DNA of 16,625 nucleotides from a virus (taxonomy: Duplodnaviria > Heunggongvirae > Uroviricota > Caudoviricetes). The notes beneath the pieces were generated by a model. It was given only the letters and a program-made list of their open reading frames with translations. It was not told the DNA's origin and did no database searches. The DNA lies in the IMG/VR virus record IMGVR_UViG_2778261459_000008; one strand, given 5' to 3'. Shown piece by piece: positions 1 to 10,065 of the stretch (position 1 is the stretch's first letter; each line of letters opens with the position of its first letter). The position numbers were made by a program, and so were the translations under genes.

Positions 1-222
1 GTGGTGATATGGATGACGGATGGCTGGCCGCTGTATGAATCCCGCCTGAAGGGAAAGCTGCACGTAATCAGCAAGCGTTACACTCAGCGCATTGAGCGAC
101 ATAATCTGAATCTGAGACAACATCTGGCAAGGCTGGGACGGAAGTCACTGTCGTTCTCAAAATCGGTGGAGCTGCATGACAAAGTCATCGGGCATTATCT
201 GAACATAAAGCACTATCAATAA
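1..222 (+). CDS. insB: IS1 transposase InsB, C-terminal part (5' end cut by window edge)
   Basis: 73-aa in-frame translation [73 protein letters not shown] with stop at 220-222; recognised as InsB C-terminus. Confidence 0.85.
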
Positions 223-2670: not shown

Positions 2671-3894
2671 ATGGCTGGTGGAACGAACAAATTAAGCGAT
2701 ACATCGCTTCGTAAAATGCTGGGAAGGGAGAGCCCCGGAGACAGCTTCTATGCTGATGGCGATGGGCTAAGTGTGAAGGTGTCCAGATCGGGCGTGTTGA
2801 CTTGGTATTTCACTTTCCGCATAGGTGGCCGGGAATCAACATCTCAGCGTATAAAGCTGGGTAATTATCCAGACCTTTCACTCAAAGCAGCTCGTGAGAA
2901 ACGAGAGCAGTGTCGCGCATGGCTCGCAGAGGGAAAGAATCCAAAGCACCAGTTGAGCGTTACGACTCAGGAAACGTTAAAGCCGGTGACAGTCAGGGAT
3001 GCCCTTGAATACTGGATCAGGGAATATGCCACCCATAACCGCGCTAATGTTGAAAAGCACATTGAGCAGCTCAATAAGCATATCTTTCCTTATATAGGTA
3101 CTTATCCGCTTTCTATGTGTGAAACTCGCCACTGGCTGGAATGTTTCGCCAGGGTAAGGAACGAAGCGCCTGTAGCGGCTGGCTATCTTTTGCAGATGTG
3201 TAAGCAAGCACTCAAGTTCTGCCGGGTTCATCGGTATGCGGTGAGTAACGTCCTGGACGATCTGACCATTGACGATGTTGGACGTAAACAGAATAAGCGG
3301 GACAGGGAGCATACCCGGCAAGAACTTGCTGATATATGGCGAGAATGCTCAGGCCTGAAATTTAAGCCCTACTACTCAGCTCTATTACGTCTGCTGGTGG
3401 TGTTTGGCTGCCGAACTCAGGAGCTGAGATTATCTCGCGTAACCGAATGGGATCTAAATGATTGGGTTTGGACGGTACCTAAAGAGCACAGCAAAGGTGG
3501 TGAGAAAATACTACGGCCTATTCCCGTAGATATTCGCCCATTTATCAAACAGCTTTTAGAGCAGCACCAAAGCACAGGGCTATTGCTGGGAGAGATAAAG
3601 AAACCGGAAGCTGTCAGTCAGTGGGGAAGGATGTTGTATAAGCGTCTGGGCCACTCTGAACCGTGGACGCTTCACGATTTACGCCGTACATTTTCCACGA
3701 CTCTGAACAACATGGGAATTGCTCCGCATGTTGTCGAGCAGCTTCTGGGCCATGCGCTGGGCGGTGTCATGTCCGTATATAACCGCAGTCAGTATTTACC
3801 TGAAAAGCTGGATGCACTGAATAAATGGATGCAGAGATTAGATGTTATTACCTCTGATATCTCAAATGTTACTATTCTTGAGGTCGCAAGATGA
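2671..3894 (+). CDS. int: tyrosine site-specific integrase (P4/CP4-57-like phage integrase family)
   Basis: 407-aa ORF; N-terminal DUF4102-like arm-binding region (GLSVKVSRSGVLTWYFTFRIGGRESTSQRIKLGNYPDLSLKAAREKREQCRAWLAEGKNP); C-terminal catalytic signature (HDLRRTFSTTL ... LGHALGGVMSVYNRSQY); SD GAGG 8 nt upstream of the ATG. Confidence 0.9.
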   Translation: MAGGTNKLSDTSLRKMLGRESPGDSFYADGDGLSVKVSRSGVLTWYFTFRIGGRESTSQRIKLGNYPDLSLKAAREKREQCRAWLAEGKNPKHQLSVTTQETLKPVTVRDALEYWIREYATHNRANVEKHIEQLNKHIFPYIGTYPLSMCETRHWLECFARVRNEAPVAAGYLLQMCKQALKFCRVHRYAVSNVLDDLTIDDVGRKQNKRDREHTRQELADIWRECSGLKFKPYYSALLRLLVVFGCRTQELRLSRVTEWDLNDWVWTVPKEHSKGGEKILRPIPVDIRPFIKQLLEQHQSTGLLLGEIKKPEAVSQWGRMLYKRLGHSEPWTLHDLRRTFSTTLNNMGIAPHVVEQLLGHALGGVMSVYNRSQYLPEKLDALNKWMQRLDVITSDISNVTILEVAR

Positions 3895-4733
3895 TAAAAA
3901 AAATTAACAGTAAAAGAGACTTACCAAAGTCATTCAGCTTAGAAAAATATGATGACCTTGAAAATATGTCTGATAAGGATTTGTTTCGTCAGCTTTATTG
4001 GCGATGCGATGATTTAACAATAAAAAATACAGACTGCCCTGACTATGGTTTGCAATATGGTGCTAAATACCCGCTTAACAATAATTTTGGTGATCCATTC
4101 GGGGAACTCAAAGCAGAAGAATGGTTTCTTGAAAAGCAAAAGGAATACGAGTACAAGACTCAGCCTGATTTGCTGAAATTAAGTTACGGCGATGGTATAA
4201 AACCATTAATGCGATTTGAGTTGGCATTTTTAAATAAAATCAATGCTGATAAAGGTCACTGGAAAGGAAAGCCAATAGTAGTTGACGATGATTTGGTGGG
4301 GGATTTGTTTACAGCAGATAACGGTATGTTTTGGGCTGTCATGCGTGAGCCAGTAAACTTACTTTCTGATGTTGTGGAAAACGTGATGATTACTGTTGAC
4401 TTAAACAACAGAGATGATCTTTTGATTGAAGCATTCACGAACCTCCTCCCAAAATGGCGCGAAGAACTCGGAATACCTGAACCAGATAAGCCAGTCTCAG
4501 GGGACTGGGAGAGCGTCAGACGGAAGATAATTGACTACAGAATAATTCCACTTATTGATTTGATGTCATGGGAAAGCGCTACCGACAGCAAAATATCCCT
4601 TGGCGTACTCGCAGTATCCCTGTTCCCGGATGGGGAAAAGGAGTCCTTTGCCATAGCTCAAACGGTGAAACCTTTCTTGGATAAAATTATGAGAAGTGAT
4701 TCTTTAGATAAAATCAGGAAAGAATTATCTTGA
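3891..4733 (+). CDS. hypothetical protein, 280 aa, AT-rich cargo gene translationally coupled to the integrase (ATGA overlap)
   Basis: Uninterrupted ORF whose ATG overlaps the int stop (ATGA at 3891-3894); visibly lower GC than flanking genes; no motif I can assign; followed by a strong terminator. Confidence 0.6.
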   Translation: MIKKINSKRDLPKSFSLEKYDDLENMSDKDLFRQLYWRCDDLTIKNTDCPDYGLQYGAKYPLNNNFGDPFGELKAEEWFLEKQKEYEYKTQPDLLKLSYGDGIKPLMRFELAFLNKINADKGHWKGKPIVVDDDLVGDLFTADNGMFWAVMREPVNLLSDVVENVMITVDLNNRDDLLIEAFTNLLPKWREELGIPEPDKPVSGDWESVRRKIIDYRIIPLIDLMSWESATDSKISLGVLAVSLFPDGEKESFAIAQTVKPFLDKIMRSDSLDKIRKELS

Positions 4734-4811
4734 TATAACTGAATCAGGGTAACTCCTTTAGAGGAATATAATTTTTTTCTCACCGTCGCGGTGATAATTT
4801 TTTTGAATAAG

Positions 4812-4848
4812 AATGCTCTCGAACCCTAGCGAACGAGAGCATTTTTTT
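4812..4848 (+). terminator. rho-independent terminator after the 280-aa gene; its T-tract runs into the alpA start codon
   Basis: AATGCTCTCG (4812-4821) pairs with CGAGAGCATT (4834-4843), followed by TTTTTTT and then ATG at 4849. Confidence 0.65.
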
Positions 4849-5058
4849 ATGAACAATATTAAACAATCCCAGCAGCCAGCAGAAAGAGTTATCCGTGAGG
4901 CTGAGTGCCGGCAGCTAACCGGTATTTGTCGAACCACTCGATACATGATGGAAAAAGAGGGGAGCTTTCCCGCCCGCCGCAAGCTGGGAGGTCGTGCTGT
5001 TGGTTGGCTTCTGTCTGAGGTCACAGCATGGCAGCAGAGCCGCAGCAAAGCAGCGTGA
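4849..5058 (+). CDS. alpA: AlpA-family phage/island transcriptional regulator (excisionase-like HTH)
   Basis: 69-aa product MNNIKQSQQP...CRQLTGICRTTRYMMEKEGSFPARRKLGGRAVGWLLSEVTAWQQ carries the AlpA signature (LTG.sR.T.Y....G.FP....LGGR.VGW...E...W). Start at 4849 chosen over the upstream in-frame ATG at 4813 by length similarity to AlpA; no clear SD for either. Confidence 0.8.
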   Translation: MNNIKQSQQPAERVIREAECRQLTGICRTTRYMMEKEGSFPARRKLGGRAVGWLLSEVTAWQQSRSKAA

Positions 5059-5399
5059 GGGGTGGGAAATGTCACATAAAACAAAAGCGGCCATGCAGGG
5101 CCGCCAATGTCACTACCAAAAACTTAAGCAAAGTCAGGATACCAGGGTTAATGCTAGTGGTCAAAGCCAGAGCGCTGCTGGGATTAAAGGAACTGCGGCA
5201 TTGGCGCACACCCTATTTCCCCAAATCTGGGGAGAACTGGATCATCATGCGGGGTGTGCTGCAATGCAGCATACCCCGGAGAAATCCCGTAGTTTCGACA
5301 AATACCCAGATATTGGGTGTTATGGCCTGCATAAAATCACACCTGCGGTTCTTATTCCTGTCCCCGGCTCTTCTTTAGCTCATTTGCAATGGCGGATAT

Positions 5400-5654
5400 T
5401 TAATCACGTGGTAACCAGCCTTTCGCATTCCTTTTGGGGATTGGAAGGTTCTTTTCCTTCAAAATACGTAAAATGGCAGGTTCTGAATGTGGTCCCCAAC
5501 CATCCCAATTACCTTCCCAACAGTCGTTACAGCAGAAAGCCCTACCGTATAATTGCAGTACACGTCCTTGGTAAAGGTCTGGGCCAAATCGTGTTTCTGA
5601 TCCACAGACTTCACATGTGCAATAAAAATGCCCTTTCTCATCTATGCGCATCAT
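5400..5654 (-). CDS. hypothetical Cys-rich small protein (putative zinc-binding), second gene of a two-gene minus-strand operon
   Basis: Product MMRIDEKGHFYCTCEVCGSETRFGPDLYQGRVLQLYGRAFCCNDCWEGNWDGW... contains C-x-C-x2-C and CC-x2-C clusters; GAGGA sits 5 nt upstream of the ATG at 5654; it lies 1 nt downstream of the stop of the upstream RHH gene. The ORF track extends it to a TTG at 5666. Confidence 0.5.
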   Translation of the reverse strand: MMRIDEKGHFYCTCEVCGSETRFGPDLYQGRVLQLYGRAFCCNDCWEGNWDGWGPHSEPAILRILKEKNLPIPKRNAKGWLPRD

Positions 5655-5667
5655 CTTCTTCCTCAAA

Positions 5668-5877
5668 TCAACCTTTTGGTTCTATTCCTTGCCGACGCAA
5701 TTCCGCGCGAGCTAATTCTTTTATCCAATTACCAAGACTTACGCCTTCGCGCTCCGCTGCATCGTTCAGTTGCTGGCGTAGATCAGGGTTGATTCTGATC
5801 TGGAAAGTAGGTGACCAGCCATCACCTTTAGGGGTTTTGTCTCGTTTAATTGTTGACACGTACGTACATAACCTCAT
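5668..5877 (-). CDS. ribbon-helix-helix (CopG/Arc/MetJ-like) DNA-binding protein; start codon uncertain (ATG at 5877 or GTG at 5859)
   Basis: The C-terminal 45 aa (SPTFQIRINPDLRQQLNDAAEREGVSLGNWIKELARAELRRQ) has the beta-strand plus two-helix pattern of RHH repressors. The ORF-track N-terminal extension to 5970 is merely the translation of the palindrome and is unlikely to be coding. Confidence 0.55.
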   Translation of the reverse strand: MRLCTYVSTIKRDKTPKGDGWSPTFQIRINPDLRQQLNDAAEREGVSLGNWIKELARAELRRQGIEPKG

Positions 5878-5904
5878 AGCATGTATTTTGTTATGTACGT
5901 ACGT
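5858..5904. promoter_or_regulatory. perfect 15-bp inverted repeat (ACGTACGTACATAAC, 17-bp spacer, GTTATGTACGTACGT): candidate operator in the divergent control region
   Basis: Read directly: 5858-5872 is the exact reverse complement of 5890-5904. It lies between the minus-strand RHH gene and the plus-strand replication operon starting at 5993; TTGACA is at 5852-5857. Confidence 0.6.
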
Positions 5905-5992
5905 TATCACGTCTGGCATAGAAAAGACAACGCCCCAAACTGTTGGAGCAGTATTGGGGCGTCTAACCAAACCGTTAGTTGAGGTAACAGTT

Positions 5993-6205
5993 ATGGCTGA
6001 ATTACAGCATACCCAAACTCGCCCGGAATTTACATGGAGATTTATCTCTGCTTCTGAGCGCTACCCTACCGCCAAACCATTGGTGATCTACGTCAACGCA
6101 TCCAGCGAACAGGAGGCCCGCGACACTATGCCGGGTGTAAACCTCATTTTCGCAGCACGTCTCCCATTCCATGCCTTTCAGGCAATGGAGGTACGCCATG
6201 CGTGA
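5993..6205 (+). CDS. hypothetical protein, 70 aa, first gene of the replication-module operon
   Basis: ATG at 5993 with GAGG 8 nt upstream; product MAELQHTQTRPEFTWRFISASERYPTAKPLVIYVNASSEQEARDTMPGVNLIF...; stop overlaps the next start. The 403-aa track ORF 4994-6205 is mostly spurious read-through; only this 3' part looks genic. Confidence 0.5.
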   Translation: MAELQHTQTRPEFTWRFISASERYPTAKPLVIYVNASSEQEARDTMPGVNLIFAARLPFHAFQAMEVRHA

Positions 6206-6603: not shown

Positions 6604-6968
6604 TCAGCAATGTGAAGTTTTACGAGCTGGCTAAGCGCGTTGATCTGCTGGTTGAAAAGGTTTTGCATCTTGAGGCACAGGTTAAGTCACTCACTGATAG
6701 TCAGGGGGGGGAAATCCCTCCGGGTATGACGCCAGTAGCAACACTGGCCGCTGAATACGGTATCTCAACCAATAAGGCTGAGGAACTGGCGAAAAACACA
6801 GGGGTGATGCTGGTTAAGCTGAAATCTGGCGGGTTCGTTGCACCTGATGAAAAGTTCAGGGAAGCGGCGCGTCTGGTGCTGCGCAGCGCTAAGCGCAAAT
6901 ATGGCTCTGCGTACTGGTTCCATCCTCTGATCGGCAAATTCCAGATGAGCGGGGGCATTCCAAAATGA
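6600..6968 (+). CDS. hypothetical protein, 122 aa, translationally coupled to the helicase gene
   Basis: ATG at 6600 with GGGAGG 8 nt upstream; ATGA overlap with the downstream gene at 6965-6968; no recognisable motif. Confidence 0.55.
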   Translation: MISNVKFYELAKRVDLLVEKVLHLEAQVKSLTDSQGGEIPPGMTPVATLAAEYGISTNKAEELAKNTGVMLVKLKSGGFVAPDEKFREAARLVLRSAKRKYGSAYWFHPLIGKFQMSGGIPK

Positions 6969-8329
6969 CGGTACAACTGACAGCTGTAGAAACCGTTTCT
7001 GATGCCCTGTTCACCTGTTCGTATCTGTGGGCGCACGGCAAGCAATACAGTCGCAGCGATTTGGATAAAGCGCTCCACCAGCATAAGGACCCCACTACCC
7101 GTTACGGAAAGCTGGTGGCTCGCCTCAACCAGATAGCAGCAATGCCGTATGAGGAACTCTGTGATGCCGGATATCTCGATACGGACCGCAAACAAATGAT
7201 TACAGCGCGGCGTTCTGTGCTGGTGGAAGAGATAGGCGAAGGGGAAATGAATGCCATGCTGTCTGACGTGCAGCGCATTCACCGGGTCTTCCCTGATGCT
7301 GGTGCAAAGTTCAGGACAAAGCTGCCTCTCTCTCGCGGTTCTGAGGGCTTTGATATCCGTCAGGACTATGTCCTTAAACACTTTCTGCCAGCGCAATCAC
7401 TGTGCAGCATTTACGGTCCCAGCGGTTCGTATAAGAGTTTTCTCGCTGTATCGTGGGCCTGTCACATTGCTGCGGGTCTGCCATGGGCTGGGAAGAAGGT
7501 CACTTCCGGCGCGGTGCTGTATGTGGTTGGTGAGGGGGGCGTAGGCGTTCCCCGGCGTATAAAGGCTTGGGAGCAGGTGCACGGCATACAGGCGGACAAC
7601 CTCTGGCTGGTCAATCGTCCGGTGTTTCCTGTGCGCGAGTCAGAGGTAACGGAAGTGCTTCTGGCTGCCAGACAGATTGAAGCTGAATGTGGTGTGCCGG
7701 TTCGCATGGTGGTGATCGATACGCTGGCCCGTTGTTTTGGCGGTAACGACGAGAACGATGCTCGTGATATGGGGGCATTTATTGAAGGGTGTGACGTTAT
7801 CAAACAGAAAACGGGTGCAACGGTGCTGATAGTTCACCACTCCGGCAAAGATGAAGGGAAAGGCGCTCGCGGTTCCAGTGCTTTCCGCGCTGCGCTTGAT
7901 ACTGAATTTAACGTTAAGCGTGAAGGGGATGGAAAGGCGCTTATTCTGACCTGTACCAAGATGAAAGACGCGGAGGAGCCAGAGCGTAAAGCGTATGACC
8001 TGAGAACGGCAGAGCTTTACACCGATGAAGATGGTGAGCTTGTTTGCTCTCTGGTTGTGCACGATCAGCCGAGAGAGGCTAAAGAGGTTGAGCCTGAACT
8101 GGCCAATGTCTCCCGTCTTAGCGATAACCACCATGCATTATGGCAGGCAGTACGCAGCCGCACAGCTAAGGGGGAGCCATGCACTATCTCCGTCATTAAA
8201 GATGATCTGCGTGCAACACTGGGGACAGATAAAGTGAGAAAGTCATTCTCGCGCTGGCTGGACAAGCTGGAGAGTGAGCAAATTATTCGCATCGAGGGTG
8301 AGAACCTTTACCCGGTAACAGTCGAGTAA
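6965..8329 (+). CDS. replication initiator/helicase, RecA-like AAA_25 (RepA-like) ATPase with predicted C-terminal winged-helix DNA-binding domain
   Basis: Walker A (IYGPSGSYKSF), Walker B-like (VRMVVIDTLARCFGG), HHSGKD motif; C-terminal about 90 aa basic and helical; immediately followed by iterons. Confidence 0.8.
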   Translation: MTVQLTAVETVSDALFTCSYLWAHGKQYSRSDLDKALHQHKDPTTRYGKLVARLNQIAAMPYEELCDAGYLDTDRKQMITARRSVLVEEIGEGEMNAMLSDVQRIHRVFPDAGAKFRTKLPLSRGSEGFDIRQDYVLKHFLPAQSLCSIYGPSGSYKSFLAVSWACHIAAGLPWAGKKVTSGAVLYVVGEGGVGVPRRIKAWEQVHGIQADNLWLVNRPVFPVRESEVTEVLLAARQIEAECGVPVRMVVIDTLARCFGGNDENDARDMGAFIEGCDVIKQKTGATVLIVHHSGKDEGKGARGSSAFRAALDTEFNVKREGDGKALILTCTKMKDAEEPERKAYDLRTAELYTDEDGELVCSLVVHDQPREAKEVEPELANVSRLSDNHHALWQAVRSRTAKGEPCTISVIKDDLRATLGTDKVRKSFSRWLDKLESEQIIRIEGENLYPVTVE

Positions 8330-8330
8330 A

Positions 8331-8522
8331 TGCGGCGGTAAGTGCGGCATGTGCGGCATTTAGTATGTTTTATGACCAAATGCCGCACTTAGCCCCTGTA
8401 TACACGCGCTAAGTGCGGCATTTCACTGAAACCACCGTCATTACTGGTTTTGCATGATTTTTTGAGATAACTGGTGCGGCGCTAAGTGCGGCATTACTAA
8501 ACGCGGCACTAAATGCGGCAAG
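8331..8522. repeat. iteron array (replication origin): about 6-7 copies of TAAGTGCGGCATT-like repeats in both orientations plus an AT-rich stretch
   Basis: Copies read at about 8339-8349, 8351-8360, 8379-8393 (reverse), 8410-8424, 8484-8497 and 8510-8522, with degenerate TGCGGCGG at 8331 and CGCGGCAC at 8502; AT-rich 8440-8470. Confidence 0.75.
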
Positions 8523-8820: not shown

Positions 8821-10065
8821 TCAATAATTAAAGTGACTTTCAACTGAAAGTTGTTTGCAGCCCAATAATTTTAAAGCTTTTCGAATGTAATATAAAGCAG
8901 CGGTATTGTCGATAATGTAGCGGAAGGCTTCATTTTTATCTTGTTGTGCATCTCTTAAATTTCTTTCAAATTCTCTTTCATAATCTTCTGCGTAATATTG
9001 ATTGGATTGTCGGCCCATAATAATCAATGTGGTTAAATCTGCTAATTCTTCCTCTGAAAAGAGAGGTAGGTAAGTAGTGGTGATGCGCATTTTTAACCGT
9101 AGGTAGTCTAAAAAATCTTCTGCTCTGATATCGGATAAACTAATTCCTGAATCCTGTAGTGGGTCCAGAAATACGTTATTTTTTTTCATTACGTCTTTTA
9201 TATGTAGTGCGTACCAAGCTTTTTTAAAACGCAATAGTGTATTTTTCCCGCTATGTTTAAGTGGAAATTCAACGCCAATTAAAGATGATAGGTATCTATT
9301 TACAACAATTTTGTCGATTGCTTTTATAAGTTGTTTGTTGCTATTGAGATTAAATTTTTTCTTGATGAATTCCTTTTTTTTCACTGTAAGTGTAGTTACC
9401 CATTCATTTTTATTACCTAGAGCTTTTGAAAGCTTGATTAGATCACGGCGTGAAAATTTATCGGTATACGTACCTGTTTTATACTCATCTTTCAGATTTA
9501 GAGTGAGCTTAATTATTTCTCGCAAACCTTCCGTGAGCTTTTTGAAATAAACAACAAATCTTACAAGGTTAATGATCGGTGTTTTTTCCAAATGTGTCGC
9601 TCCGACATTGGACTCAGGGTATCTAAAAGTTTGTGCTGTGTCGTCTATAGCCACAAAGTCTAATATATAAGGCTCGATTTTTTTTGTAATGTGAAATAGT
9701 CGTATATCTGTCCTCTCAGCGACATCAATCGTGGCATCCCATAGTTTCTTGATGCTGTGGATTTTTGTCACATCAGGAACTGATATCGCCAATCCTCGGA
9801 GATCTGCCATGTCAATGAGGATAGTCTTTAGAGAAAGCTCAATTCCGTGCCTGGCAGAGTAGGCAATCGGATAAACAAGTAAATCAACTTCTCCTCTCTT
9901 GTTATTTTTGTATATATAGTCAGTAAGTATCTCTGGGGTTCTAAGGTAACCTTCAGCATAAGTTAATGAGTCAGGGAAACCATTCGTTCCGACGCAAGCA
10001 TTCAGCCAATCAAATCGACCATTGCCCAAACCAAAGGTGTTATTAAAGATTGTTTCTTTTTCCAT
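8821..10065 (-). CDS. hypothetical protein, 414 aa, AT-rich cargo gene on the opposite strand to the island backbone; candidate accessory/anti-phage function
   Basis: Uninterrupted minus-strand ORF with ATG at 10065 and AAGGA 8 nt upstream; markedly AT-rich versus flanking replication and capsid genes; no Walker, HNH, DPPY or other catalytic motif recognised. Confidence 0.7.
   Translation of the reverse strand: MEKETIFNNTFGLGNGRFDWLNACVGTNGFPDSLTYAEGYLRTPEILTDYIYKNNKRGEVDLLVYPIAYSARHGIELSLKTILIDMADLRGLAISVPDVTKIHSIKKLWDATIDVAERTDIRLFHITKKIEPYILDFVAIDDTAQTFRYPESNVGATHLEKTPIINLVRFVVYFKKLTEGLREIIKLTLNLKDEYKTGTYTDKFSRRDLIKLSKALGNKNEWVTTLTVKKKEFIKKKFNLNSNKQLIKAIDKIVVNRYLSSLIGVEFPLKHSGKNTLLRFKKAWYALHIKDVMKKNNVFLDPLQDSGISLSDIRAEDFLDYLRLKMRITTTYLPLFSEEELADLTTLIIMGRQSNQYYAEDYEREFERNLRDAQQDKNEAFRYIIDNTAALYYIRKALKLLGCKQLSVESHFNY

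Follow-up and report, generated by a model that had tools for sequence, protein, structure and literature searches.

A candidate ribbon-helix-helix repressor switch with a linked zinc-finger gene at the control junction of a capsid-forming phage satellite of Escherichia coli

The 16,625-nucleotide (nt) stretch of viral DNA analysed here (IMG/VR record IMGVR_UViG_2778261459_000008; hereafter the window, to which all positions refer unless another locus is named) carries on its minus strand a gene for a 63-amino-acid (aa) ribbon-helix-helix (RHH) protein followed by a gene for an 84-aa cysteine-rich protein, and this pair adjoins a perfect inverted repeat on whose other side a replication operon is encoded in the opposite direction. 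In the region around the module the window is 100% identical to the chromosome of E. coli HZ13 and to five other complete genomes. In the HZ13 record, as annotated by the Prokaryotic Genome Annotation Pipeline (PGAP), an insert of about 14 kb lies between yhdJ and fis and contains genes for a tyrosine integrase, a DUF6387 protein, an AlpA-type regulator, an icd-like product and a RepA-family helicase, together with a packaging and head set (major capsid, prohead protease, portal, head-tail connector, HNH, TerS and TerL), and no tail or lysis genes. Pfam supports both alpA (PF05930, 9.1e-16) and the AAA_25 helicase in the window. Phage-inducible chromosomal islands that form capsids (cf-PICIs) are defined by int, alpA, a replication gene and their own capsid-to-TerL set, without tail or lysis genes, within about 10-16 kb at a dedicated attachment site (10.1101/2022.09.08.507074). 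Since the insert carries this defining gene set, it is a cf-PICI. The module is made up of the following features.

5400 to 5654, minus strand: gene for the 84-aa protein, a predicted C4 zinc finger, second in the RHH operon (ATG 5654-5652, stop codon 5402-5400; unannotated in RefSeq)
5658 to 5664, minus strand: GAGGAAG Shine-Dalgarno sequence of the zinc-finger gene, 6 nt ahead of its ATG, counted from the GAGG core
5668 to 5859, minus strand: gene for the 63-aa RHH protein, YlcI/YnfO family (GTG start 5859-5857, TGA stop 5670-5668; PGAP coding sequence WP_050428151)
5872 to 5875, minus strand: GAGG Shine-Dalgarno sequence of the RHH gene, read from the sequence, inside the operator spacer and 12 nt ahead of the start codon
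5853 to 5882, plus strand: predicted sigma-70-like promoter of the icd-like/replication operon (-35 TTGACA 5853-5858, 18-nt spacer, -10 TAGCAT 5877-5882)
5858 to 5872, no strand: left (proximal) putative operator arm ACGTACGTACATAAC, in the spacer that separates -35 from -10 in the rightward promoter, overlapping the RHH start codon by 2 nt
5890 to 5904, no strand: right (distal) putative operator arm GTTATGTACGTACGT, spanning the rightward promoter from about +1 to +15 and overlapping the leftward -10
5901 to 5909, minus strand: putative extended -10 of the RHH promoter, TG-a-TAACGT (window sequence TGATAACGT, 5909-5901)

The product of the first gene scores above the cut-offs of PF05534 (25.7 bits, cut-off 21, with only residues 24-54 matched) and of the NCBIfam model NF041551, YlcI_YnfO_N (31.7 bits, cut-off 30), matches PHROG 228, 'Arc-like repressor' (4.6e-6), and has weaker Pfam matches to TacA1, RHH_4 and DUF6290. 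A profile sequence search for relatives in the PDB returned nothing significant. In an AlphaFold2 (AF2) monomer model, built with 27 homologues, helices 25-37 and 42-56 have a predicted local distance difference test score (pLDDT) above 90. The N-terminal arm is of low confidence, the block-mean pLDDT being at least 90 from residue 21, and the segment with TFQIRI ahead of helix 1 is non-helical; no strand is called there, as expected without a dimer partner. On the profile match and the strand-then-two-helices layout within about 45 residues we assign the protein to the RHH superfamily, and as modelled, with only about seven residues beyond helix 2, it is a minimal Arc/CopG-type protein without a C-terminal toxin-binding extension. 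A preliminary description of this DNA, made from its letters and a list of open reading frames (ORFs), had proposed such an RHH gene and a cysteine-rich partner; both ORFs exist, and the profile scores and the model, with its two confident helices, agree with the RHH identity. Homologues of the RHH protein form 107 clusters at 90% identity in Enterobacterales and are variously annotated as YlcI/YnfO, 'HicB family antitoxin', CopG or 'repressor'. The GTG at 5859 is the start used by PGAP, an M-S-T start is found at the same position in all relatives, and GAGG or GGAG is kept at equal spacing before the start in sister islands. An in-frame upstream ATG at 5877 was also considered, 69-70-aa versions of the protein being present in databases, and was rejected: it is absent in loci L089 and L090, and M-S-T is universal.

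The inverted repeat is as perfect as first described: the 15-bp arms ACGTACGTACATAAC (5858-5872) and GTTATGTACGTACGT (5890-5904) are 100% complementary and 17 nt apart, and no other perfect inverted repeat of at least 11 nt with arms within 60 nt occurs in the whole window. With up to three mismatches allowed, the arm sequence has three sites in the window against 0.22 expected, a count reached in none of 200 shuffles. The position given earlier, immediately upstream of the RHH gene, needs a small amendment, since the repeat does adjoin the gene but its left arm overlaps the GTG start codon by 2 nt. The rightward promoter predicted across the left arm has 10 of 12 consensus matches. Its -35 is the reverse complement of RHH codons 1-3 (GTG TCA ACA), and a perfect TTGACA stands at the same place in nine of nine scanned loci of this RHH family, whatever their operator type, and not at that place in an unrelated cassette of the SCU-125 island; a filter for -10-like hexamers finds one 17-18 nt downstream of it in seven of these loci, the two without one being L003 and L009. 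For the RHH promoter the scan found no consensus -35/-10 pair, and an extended -10 alone can be proposed, the pattern TGnTAnnGT occurring directly outside the distal operator in the window and in L086, L088, L089, L090, L096, L100, L103 and L109. From the predicted starts, near 5889 (plus strand) and 5894 (minus strand), the two transcripts would begin a few bases apart and diverge, each arm lying over one promoter core and over the early transcribed region of the other.

The same repeat might act not as a protein operator but as an RNA or DNA hairpin, for translational control of the RHH gene, as a processing site or as an origin-like cruciform. Both strands give a strong fold (-22.1 and -25.4 kcal/mol; z-scores -4.3 and -5.1), the Shine-Dalgarno sequence of the RHH gene would be in the loop with the start codon at the stem base, a symmetric base change in L086 preserves pairing, and a transcript reading through from alpA would hold both arms. 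From the predicted starts, however, each mRNA would carry one arm only, and a T-run follows on neither strand. Other specificity classes of the family have, at the same promoter-relative positions, several short alternating repeats (TGTAAT four times in L003) and no single stem, and changes in the operator track the residues of the RHH β-strand. We therefore consider a hairpin function extremely improbable.

Comparison between islands speaks for a protein operator. Across five aligned islands with an SPTFQIRI-type RHH protein, the GTACGTACRTAA cores, the TTGACA and the bases read as TGnTA (plus-strand TTA-CA) are invariant and the spacer varies; the symmetric change mentioned above is A/T in the window and G/C in L086. 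Over the wider set, the β-strand SPTFQIRI pairs with the GTACGTAC operator, APAFQIRI with GGTA(T/C)GTACCTAT repeats, SPIFSMRL with TATGGACC/GGTCCATA repeats and PFQFRL with four TGTAAT hexamers. The RHH residues expected to face the DNA and the repeats change together, with constant geometry to the promoters, and this covariation across related islands argues for a repressor/operator specificity pair. From it and from the two kept GTACGTACRTAA sites we infer that the RHH protein would bind the operator as a dimer or a higher oligomer. An autoregulated repressor switch between divergent units, one of two possibilities offered in the preliminary description, is thus supported at the level of sequence by the architecture (arms over conserved promoters) and by the covariation; with the RHH gene encoded divergently from the replication operon and the putative operator over the promoter of that operon, the layout is that expected of a master repressor.

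The switch also appears to move as a unit. Compared with the sister island in E. coli SCU-125, the window is near-identical from alpA as far as about 5330, and once more beyond about 5925. In place of the segment between, SCU-125 has a small gene that is unrelated, although likewise annotated YlcI/YnfO; its repeats differ, and a second gene is absent. A cassette of operator and RHH gene, with or without a second gene, is thus exchanged between islands.

Phage P22 immI has two RHH repressors, Mnt and Arc, acting at the overlapping divergent promoters Pant and Pmnt, and icd belongs to the P1 immI operon, which is analogous to that of P22. The module described here resembles P22 immI in its very small RHH repressor, in a short symmetric operator in or between back-to-back divergent promoters, and in one operator position that would block a lytic-type operon and affect the repressor's own promoter; its first controlled gene is icd-like. 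It differs in having one RHH gene and not two, no ant gene and no detectable sequence relation to Arc or Mnt beyond the RHH profile, and in belonging to a satellite with published AlpA induction. Stl/Rpr of the Gram-positive PICIs (the Staphylococcus aureus pathogenicity islands, SaPIs) occupies the same place on the map, is likewise divergent from the replication operon and has the same expected role of silencer (layout in PMC6092414). Stl, however, is a larger helix-turn-helix protein that is inactivated by binding helper-phage proteins, whereas the present protein is a 63-aa RHH without a sensor domain, and int and alpA here point towards the RHH gene instead of being co-oriented with it. 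The module reads as an Arc/Mnt-style operator switch that would serve a phage satellite and is joined to a gene of an uncharacterised zinc-finger family.

Such a repressor has not figured in the description of these islands. The global repressor of Gram-negative PICIs was called 'unclear' in their 2018 description (PMC6092414), and AlpA, whose expression is triggered by helper phages, is required for the induction of Gram-negative PICIs (PMC6092414) and of the prototype cf-PICI (10.1101/2022.09.08.507074). The cf-PICI papers make no mention of an RHH protein (10.1101/2022.09.08.507074), a survey of 2026 lists 'YlcI/YnfO', 'HicB' and 'Icd' among PICI and cf-PICI accessory genes with no function assigned (PMC13612085), and our literature search turned up none in which an RHH regulator is connected with PICIs. 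Although the RHH protein scores above the cut-off of the YlcI/YnfO family (NF041551) and is so named by PGAP, that name comes without a tested function, and the 'HicB antitoxin' label is a domain-level carry-over.

The second gene of the module starts at ATG 5654, 13 nt past the RHH stop codon, and the same 13-nt gap is found in relatives; the 1-nt spacing reported previously is that of an 88-aa ORF beginning at a TTG. The GAGGAA ahead of the gene is kept in L003, L008 and L009. Its homologues in other PICIs are 84 aa each, at 92, 79 and 71% identity, and stand 13 nt behind genes for 58-59-aa RHH proteins in islands that differ in integrase, replicase (DUF927 or AAA_25) and capsid type (HK97-like or lambda-E-like), so the reading frame is conserved, though optional, in related islands, and the lack of conservation that the preliminary description named as a refutation is not what is found. 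In comparison with L003, the window gene has 0.106 non-synonymous differences per site (pN) and 0.833 synonymous ones (pS), the synonymous sites being saturated. On these comparisons it is a real gene under purifying selection. PGAP leaves it unannotated in all six identical RefSeq genomes, although homologues of 70-79% identity elsewhere are annotated as hypothetical proteins, which we regard as a miss by the pipeline. Among 5426 complete E. coli genomes, only 7 have it.

A profile search of 1.84 billion representative sequences gathered a family of 315 clusters, nearly all about 80 aa long and matched end to end; the names given in databases are without exception 'hypothetical protein'. The two cysteine clusters noticed at the outset are both present (C12, C14 and C17; C41, C42 and C45), but only C14, C17, C42 and C45 are invariant across the family, as is P73; G30, Y36, N49, D51, G52, W53, P82 and R83 are near-invariant. 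In the AF2 model (pLDDT 76.6), the first CxxC is part of a β-hairpin, framed by strands 10-13 and 20-23, and the second stands where helix 43-47 begins. The protein is accordingly read as a treble-clef-like C4 zinc finger with predicted metal binding. It has no relative in Pfam, NCBIfam, PADLOC, PHROG or the PDB, no significant fold match, and no match in 50,697 phage and 72,556 plasmid records. Ogr/Delta transactivators of P2 and P4 are small (70-85 aa) four-cysteine zinc proteins encoded by phages and satellites, and the protein here shares their size and the four cysteines. However, no match to Ogr_Delta (PF04606) was found in Pfam at E-values up to 1, nor among 35 members of the zinc-finger family, the cysteine spacing (CxxC-x24-CxxC) and the core NWDGW, LPxPxRN and LPR differ, and the family is spread far outside phage-related contexts.

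Relatives of the zinc-finger protein were found in 74 genomes of many phyla, and only one of these, a metagenome-assembled genome of Enterobacterales, has this RHH gene upstream. About 65 homologues in distant genomes stand without it, several of them by housekeeping genes; their neighbours were taken from naive ORF calls, and small neighbours are uncertain. These neighbours include aspartate kinase (lysC), propionyl-CoA carboxylase (pccB), dnaN, DUF1156/DUF499 methylase systems, DUF2971 and small helix-turn-helix genes. Around 66 distant homologues no partner family recurs in more than three loci; housekeeping genes (AA_kinase, carboxylases, NMO) are mixed there with genes of a mobile or defence type (DUF499/DUF1156, HEPN_Swt1, AAA_15/21, integrase, portal). 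By eye, the homologue in L041 (930-1582 of that locus; Brevundimonas) overlaps or closely trails a PIN-like (DUF5615-type) gene, and those in L054 and L069 (about 3740-4228; marine alphaproteobacteria) trail an XRE-type helix-turn-helix gene.

The other possibility offered in the preliminary description was an antitoxin-toxin-like pair, which here would be a type II system with the RHH protein as antitoxin and autorepressor and the cysteine-rich protein as a new toxin for island stability or abortive infection. Gene order, close gap and promoter palindrome do make a canonical layout, one that is common to many operons of other kinds as well; PGAP calls many RHH homologues 'HicB family antitoxin', and the few distant homologues directly behind small XRE-type genes (L054 and L069, by eye) would also fit. 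RHH antitoxins, however, hold their toxin by a C-terminal extension, and the present protein ends about seven residues after helix 2, without a toxin-binding domain. The HicB label goes back to nothing but the RHH segment of PF05534: the protein lacks the N-terminal domain of HicB, and neither neighbour of the RHH gene matches HicA in Pfam or NCBIfam. The zinc-finger protein matches no toxin or defence model in Pfam, NCBIfam or PADLOC, in keeping with the earlier remark that no toxin family was recognised in it. Its homologues stand alone by lysC, pccB, dnaN and similar genes in many phyla, and with so wide an RHH-free distribution the protein would not depend on this RHH for neutralisation. 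Most of the RHH genes, for their part, are solitary or paired with unrelated cargo such as PD-T7-1. A toxin-antitoxin pair thus lacks three of its defining features; it is not supported, and we judge it very unlikely.

What follows the RHH gene differs from island to island. Most RHH islands are empty there (L088, L090, L103-105, L109-111); others hold small proteins of 67-75 aa, or proteins of 41 aa (L089), 236 aa (L086) or 205 aa (L100), or a SWIM finger (L091). In L092-L099 and L108 the slot holds a 449-aa protein that matches PD-T7-1 (E-value 1.8e-156; about 3217-4566 in L092), a validated single-gene anti-phage system (PMC9519451). This is so in the commonest Klebsiella islands, which are cf-PICI-like, and also at a site resembling an integrative and conjugative element (ICE), by FRG, DUF3892 and TrbL genes. 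Since PD-T7-1 lies behind the same RHH gene in both cf-PICI-like and ICE-like contexts, the RHH-plus-cargo unit travels between element types. Because distant homologues of the zinc-finger protein lack the RHH gene, most RHH loci lack the zinc-finger gene and the contents of the slot vary, the zinc-finger gene is best read, on these sequence comparisons, as a passenger that is optional and fills a cargo slot downstream of the repressor gene. A variable slot directly downstream of a maintenance repressor, with PD-T7-1 in sister islands, recalls the repressor-linked passenger genes of lambda, rexA and rexB behind cI. It also recalls the defence hotspots of P2 and P4 (PMC9519451), with the difference that the zinc-finger protein has no similarity to catalogued defence proteins and that its expression from the RHH promoter is only presumed.

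The zinc-finger protein could instead be a regulatory partner of the RHH protein, namely a co-repressor, an anti-repressor or a helper-phage sensor that binds the RHH protein, or its complex with the operator, and tunes the switch. The pair would then be the Gram-negative equivalent of Stl, the sensor-repressor of Gram-positive PICIs. The two genes form one predicted operon with a conserved 13-nt gap, and in Enterobacterales the zinc-finger gene is found only behind this RHH family, across four operator specificities and islands with differing integrases, replicases and capsid types; L008 and L009 share an identical zinc-finger protein, and their RHH proteins clearly differ in sequence. All partner RHH proteins also have a GIEPK(G/N) C-terminal tail in common, but the GIEPKG tail is kept by RHH proteins without a zinc-finger partner too, and its candidacy as a docking site was dropped. 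The numbers are likewise uneven, with 107 clusters in the RHH clade against four enterobacterial zinc-finger clusters and 7 carriers among the 5426 E. coli genomes, and with the RHH clade so much wider than the zinc-finger gene, the switch would work without it. Distant zinc-finger homologues have no RHH neighbour. We hold a regulatory partnership to be unlikely, and prefer to see the zinc-finger gene as an optional passenger.

On either side of the module lie features that bear on how the switch would be worked.

4849 to 5058, plus strand: alpA, gene for an AlpA-family activator (PF05930, 9.1e-16; PGAP), convergent with the RHH operon
5086 to 5105, minus strand: predicted intrinsic terminator by the alpA stop codon (terminator scan; fold -16.9 kcal/mol)
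5930 to 5962, no strand: GC-rich hairpin between the operator and the start of the icd-like gene (fold -21.7 kcal/mol, z-score -4.7)
5993 to 6205, plus strand: icd-like gene, first of the divergent replication operon (NF033153, 7.2e-17; PGAP)

The terminator at 5086-5105 is the probable end of the RHH/zinc-finger transcript, and an equivalent hairpin and T-run are found in L008, L009 and SCU-125. On the plus strand the scan found no terminator between alpA and the icd-like gene. Every related locus has the hairpin at 5930-5962, and by eye both halves of its stem show base changes; the exchangeable cassette has its right boundary here. A T-run (5929-5920) comes after the hairpin on the minus strand, where the terminator scan also marks it, so that it resembles a terminator just upstream of the RHH promoter, and on the plus strand it falls in the leader of the icd-like gene; an insulator, the end of an antisense RNA, a leader structure and a recombination joint are all candidate roles. 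In the E. coli islands L101 (2069-3194) and L102 (2011-3255), two RHH cassettes stand in tandem. Behind each comes a small protein of 67-75 aa that matches no family, and these proteins share the motif F-x-L-(D/E)-(E/D)-F-x-x-K-Y. The inner of the two cassettes keeps a remnant of the icd-like start and leader, with the hairpin, which suggests, from sequence, that the conserved hairpin and leader served as a recombination joint. The leader and 5' region of the icd-like gene are conserved on E. coli plasmids as well (pECO-6dfa, L087, 2766-3486; 87% over 177 nt), where they adjoin a divergent gene for a 59-aa protein at a site just upstream of both a BREX system and a WYL regulator. An Rfam scan of the whole window at E-values up to 1 gave two sub-threshold matches elsewhere and none in or beside the module, and no C4/CI-type antisense RNA was found by Rfam despite the icd-like gene.

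Other parts of the window show further structure. About 270 bp after alpA (5059-5330) are non-coding and near-identical in the SCU-125 island, although the adjoining RHH cassette has been swapped there; this is not an ORF, because SCU-125 has a 107-bp insertion in it. The segment contains a 20-nt inverted repeat (5194-5213 and 5252-5271), folds slightly better than shuffled sequences (z-scores -2.0 and -2.6), has no Rfam match, and could be a 3' untranslated region or small RNA of the leftward operon, or a target of AlpA. Another inverted repeat, of 13 bp (AAGAATGCTCTCG and CGAGAGCATTTTT, 4809-4846), ends 3 nt ahead of the PGAP start of alpA at 4849 and may be an alpA control element. In the replication operon the gene for the repA-type helicase lies downstream of the icd-like gene, at 6965-8329, and directly after its stop codon (8329) there are clustered AAATGCCGCAC(TTAGC) repeats, including a 23-nt palindrome (8334-8423), which are probably the replication origin of the island. 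Between the replication and capsid modules a 414-aa gene lies on the minus strand (8821-10065), named 'DUF3775 domain-containing' by PGAP, with a Pfam score of 26.3 bits, just below the 27-bit cut-off, and no PADLOC match; its position is a second accessory slot, filled in sister islands by genes of the HEPN, ProQ or PerC type. Window positions 1-222 encode the C-terminal part of an IS1 transposase (PF03400, 6.7e-39), and the same position in HZ13 falls in acrE, so the source strain has an IS1 insertion upstream of acrS.

Taken together, we consider it reasonably probable that the module is a control junction of the cf-PICI, in which an RHH repressor switch lies over divergent promoters and is linked to a zinc-finger passenger that is possibly anti-phage. 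In the quiescent island, RHH dimers would bind the two GTACGTACRTAA sites, shutting the replication/packaging operon and limiting the synthesis of the repressor itself. The zinc-finger cistron would be expressed from the RHH promoter throughout this quiescent state, in the manner of rexAB downstream of cI in lambda; its product would bind protein or nucleic acid, and would most likely be an accessory protein with an anti-phage, helper-interference or host-modulating role, not a toxin neutralised by the RHH protein. When a helper phage induces AlpA, transcription would run rightward from alpA, cross the zinc-finger and RHH genes in the antisense direction and enter the replication operon; such read-through could occur because the scan found no plus-strand terminator between alpA and the icd-like gene, and we propose, purely as a hypothesis, that it would both bypass and silence the repressor and so flip the switch.

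Several points weigh against this interpretation. Published work on Gram-negative PICIs and cf-PICIs names only an activator, AlpA, and also reports that capsids are produced even without induction (PMC6092414, 10.1101/2022.09.08.507074); repression by the RHH protein may therefore be partial, or may serve another end such as Arc-like feedback. Both transcription starts are predictions, the leftward promoter has no recognisable -35, and the 12 nt between the Shine-Dalgarno sequence and the start codon of the RHH gene are a long distance. An anti-phage role of the zinc-finger protein would be guilt by position, the protein having no match in PADLOC or in the phage and plasmid records, and its constant linkage in Enterobacterales to RHH proteins of this one family, of four specificity types, is also what a functional partnership would give.

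A bolder and, in our view, doubtful extension would make the RHH/operator cassette the maintenance repressor, or 'immunity' determinant, of Gram-negative PICIs and cf-PICIs, diversified by cassette exchange into specificity types, with the 84-aa protein founding a new family of single-gene effectors behind it, either a novel anti-phage protein or a zinc-finger sensor that links the RHH switch to a helper-phage signal. The switch itself provides a concrete candidate mechanism for the silence of these satellites and for a possible lack of cross-regulation among related islands. Since PD-T7-1 can sit behind the RHH gene, that slot is worth searching for new genes of defence or helper interference, and the 84-aa zinc-finger family, with about 315 clusters and neither a name nor a structure, is one such candidate.

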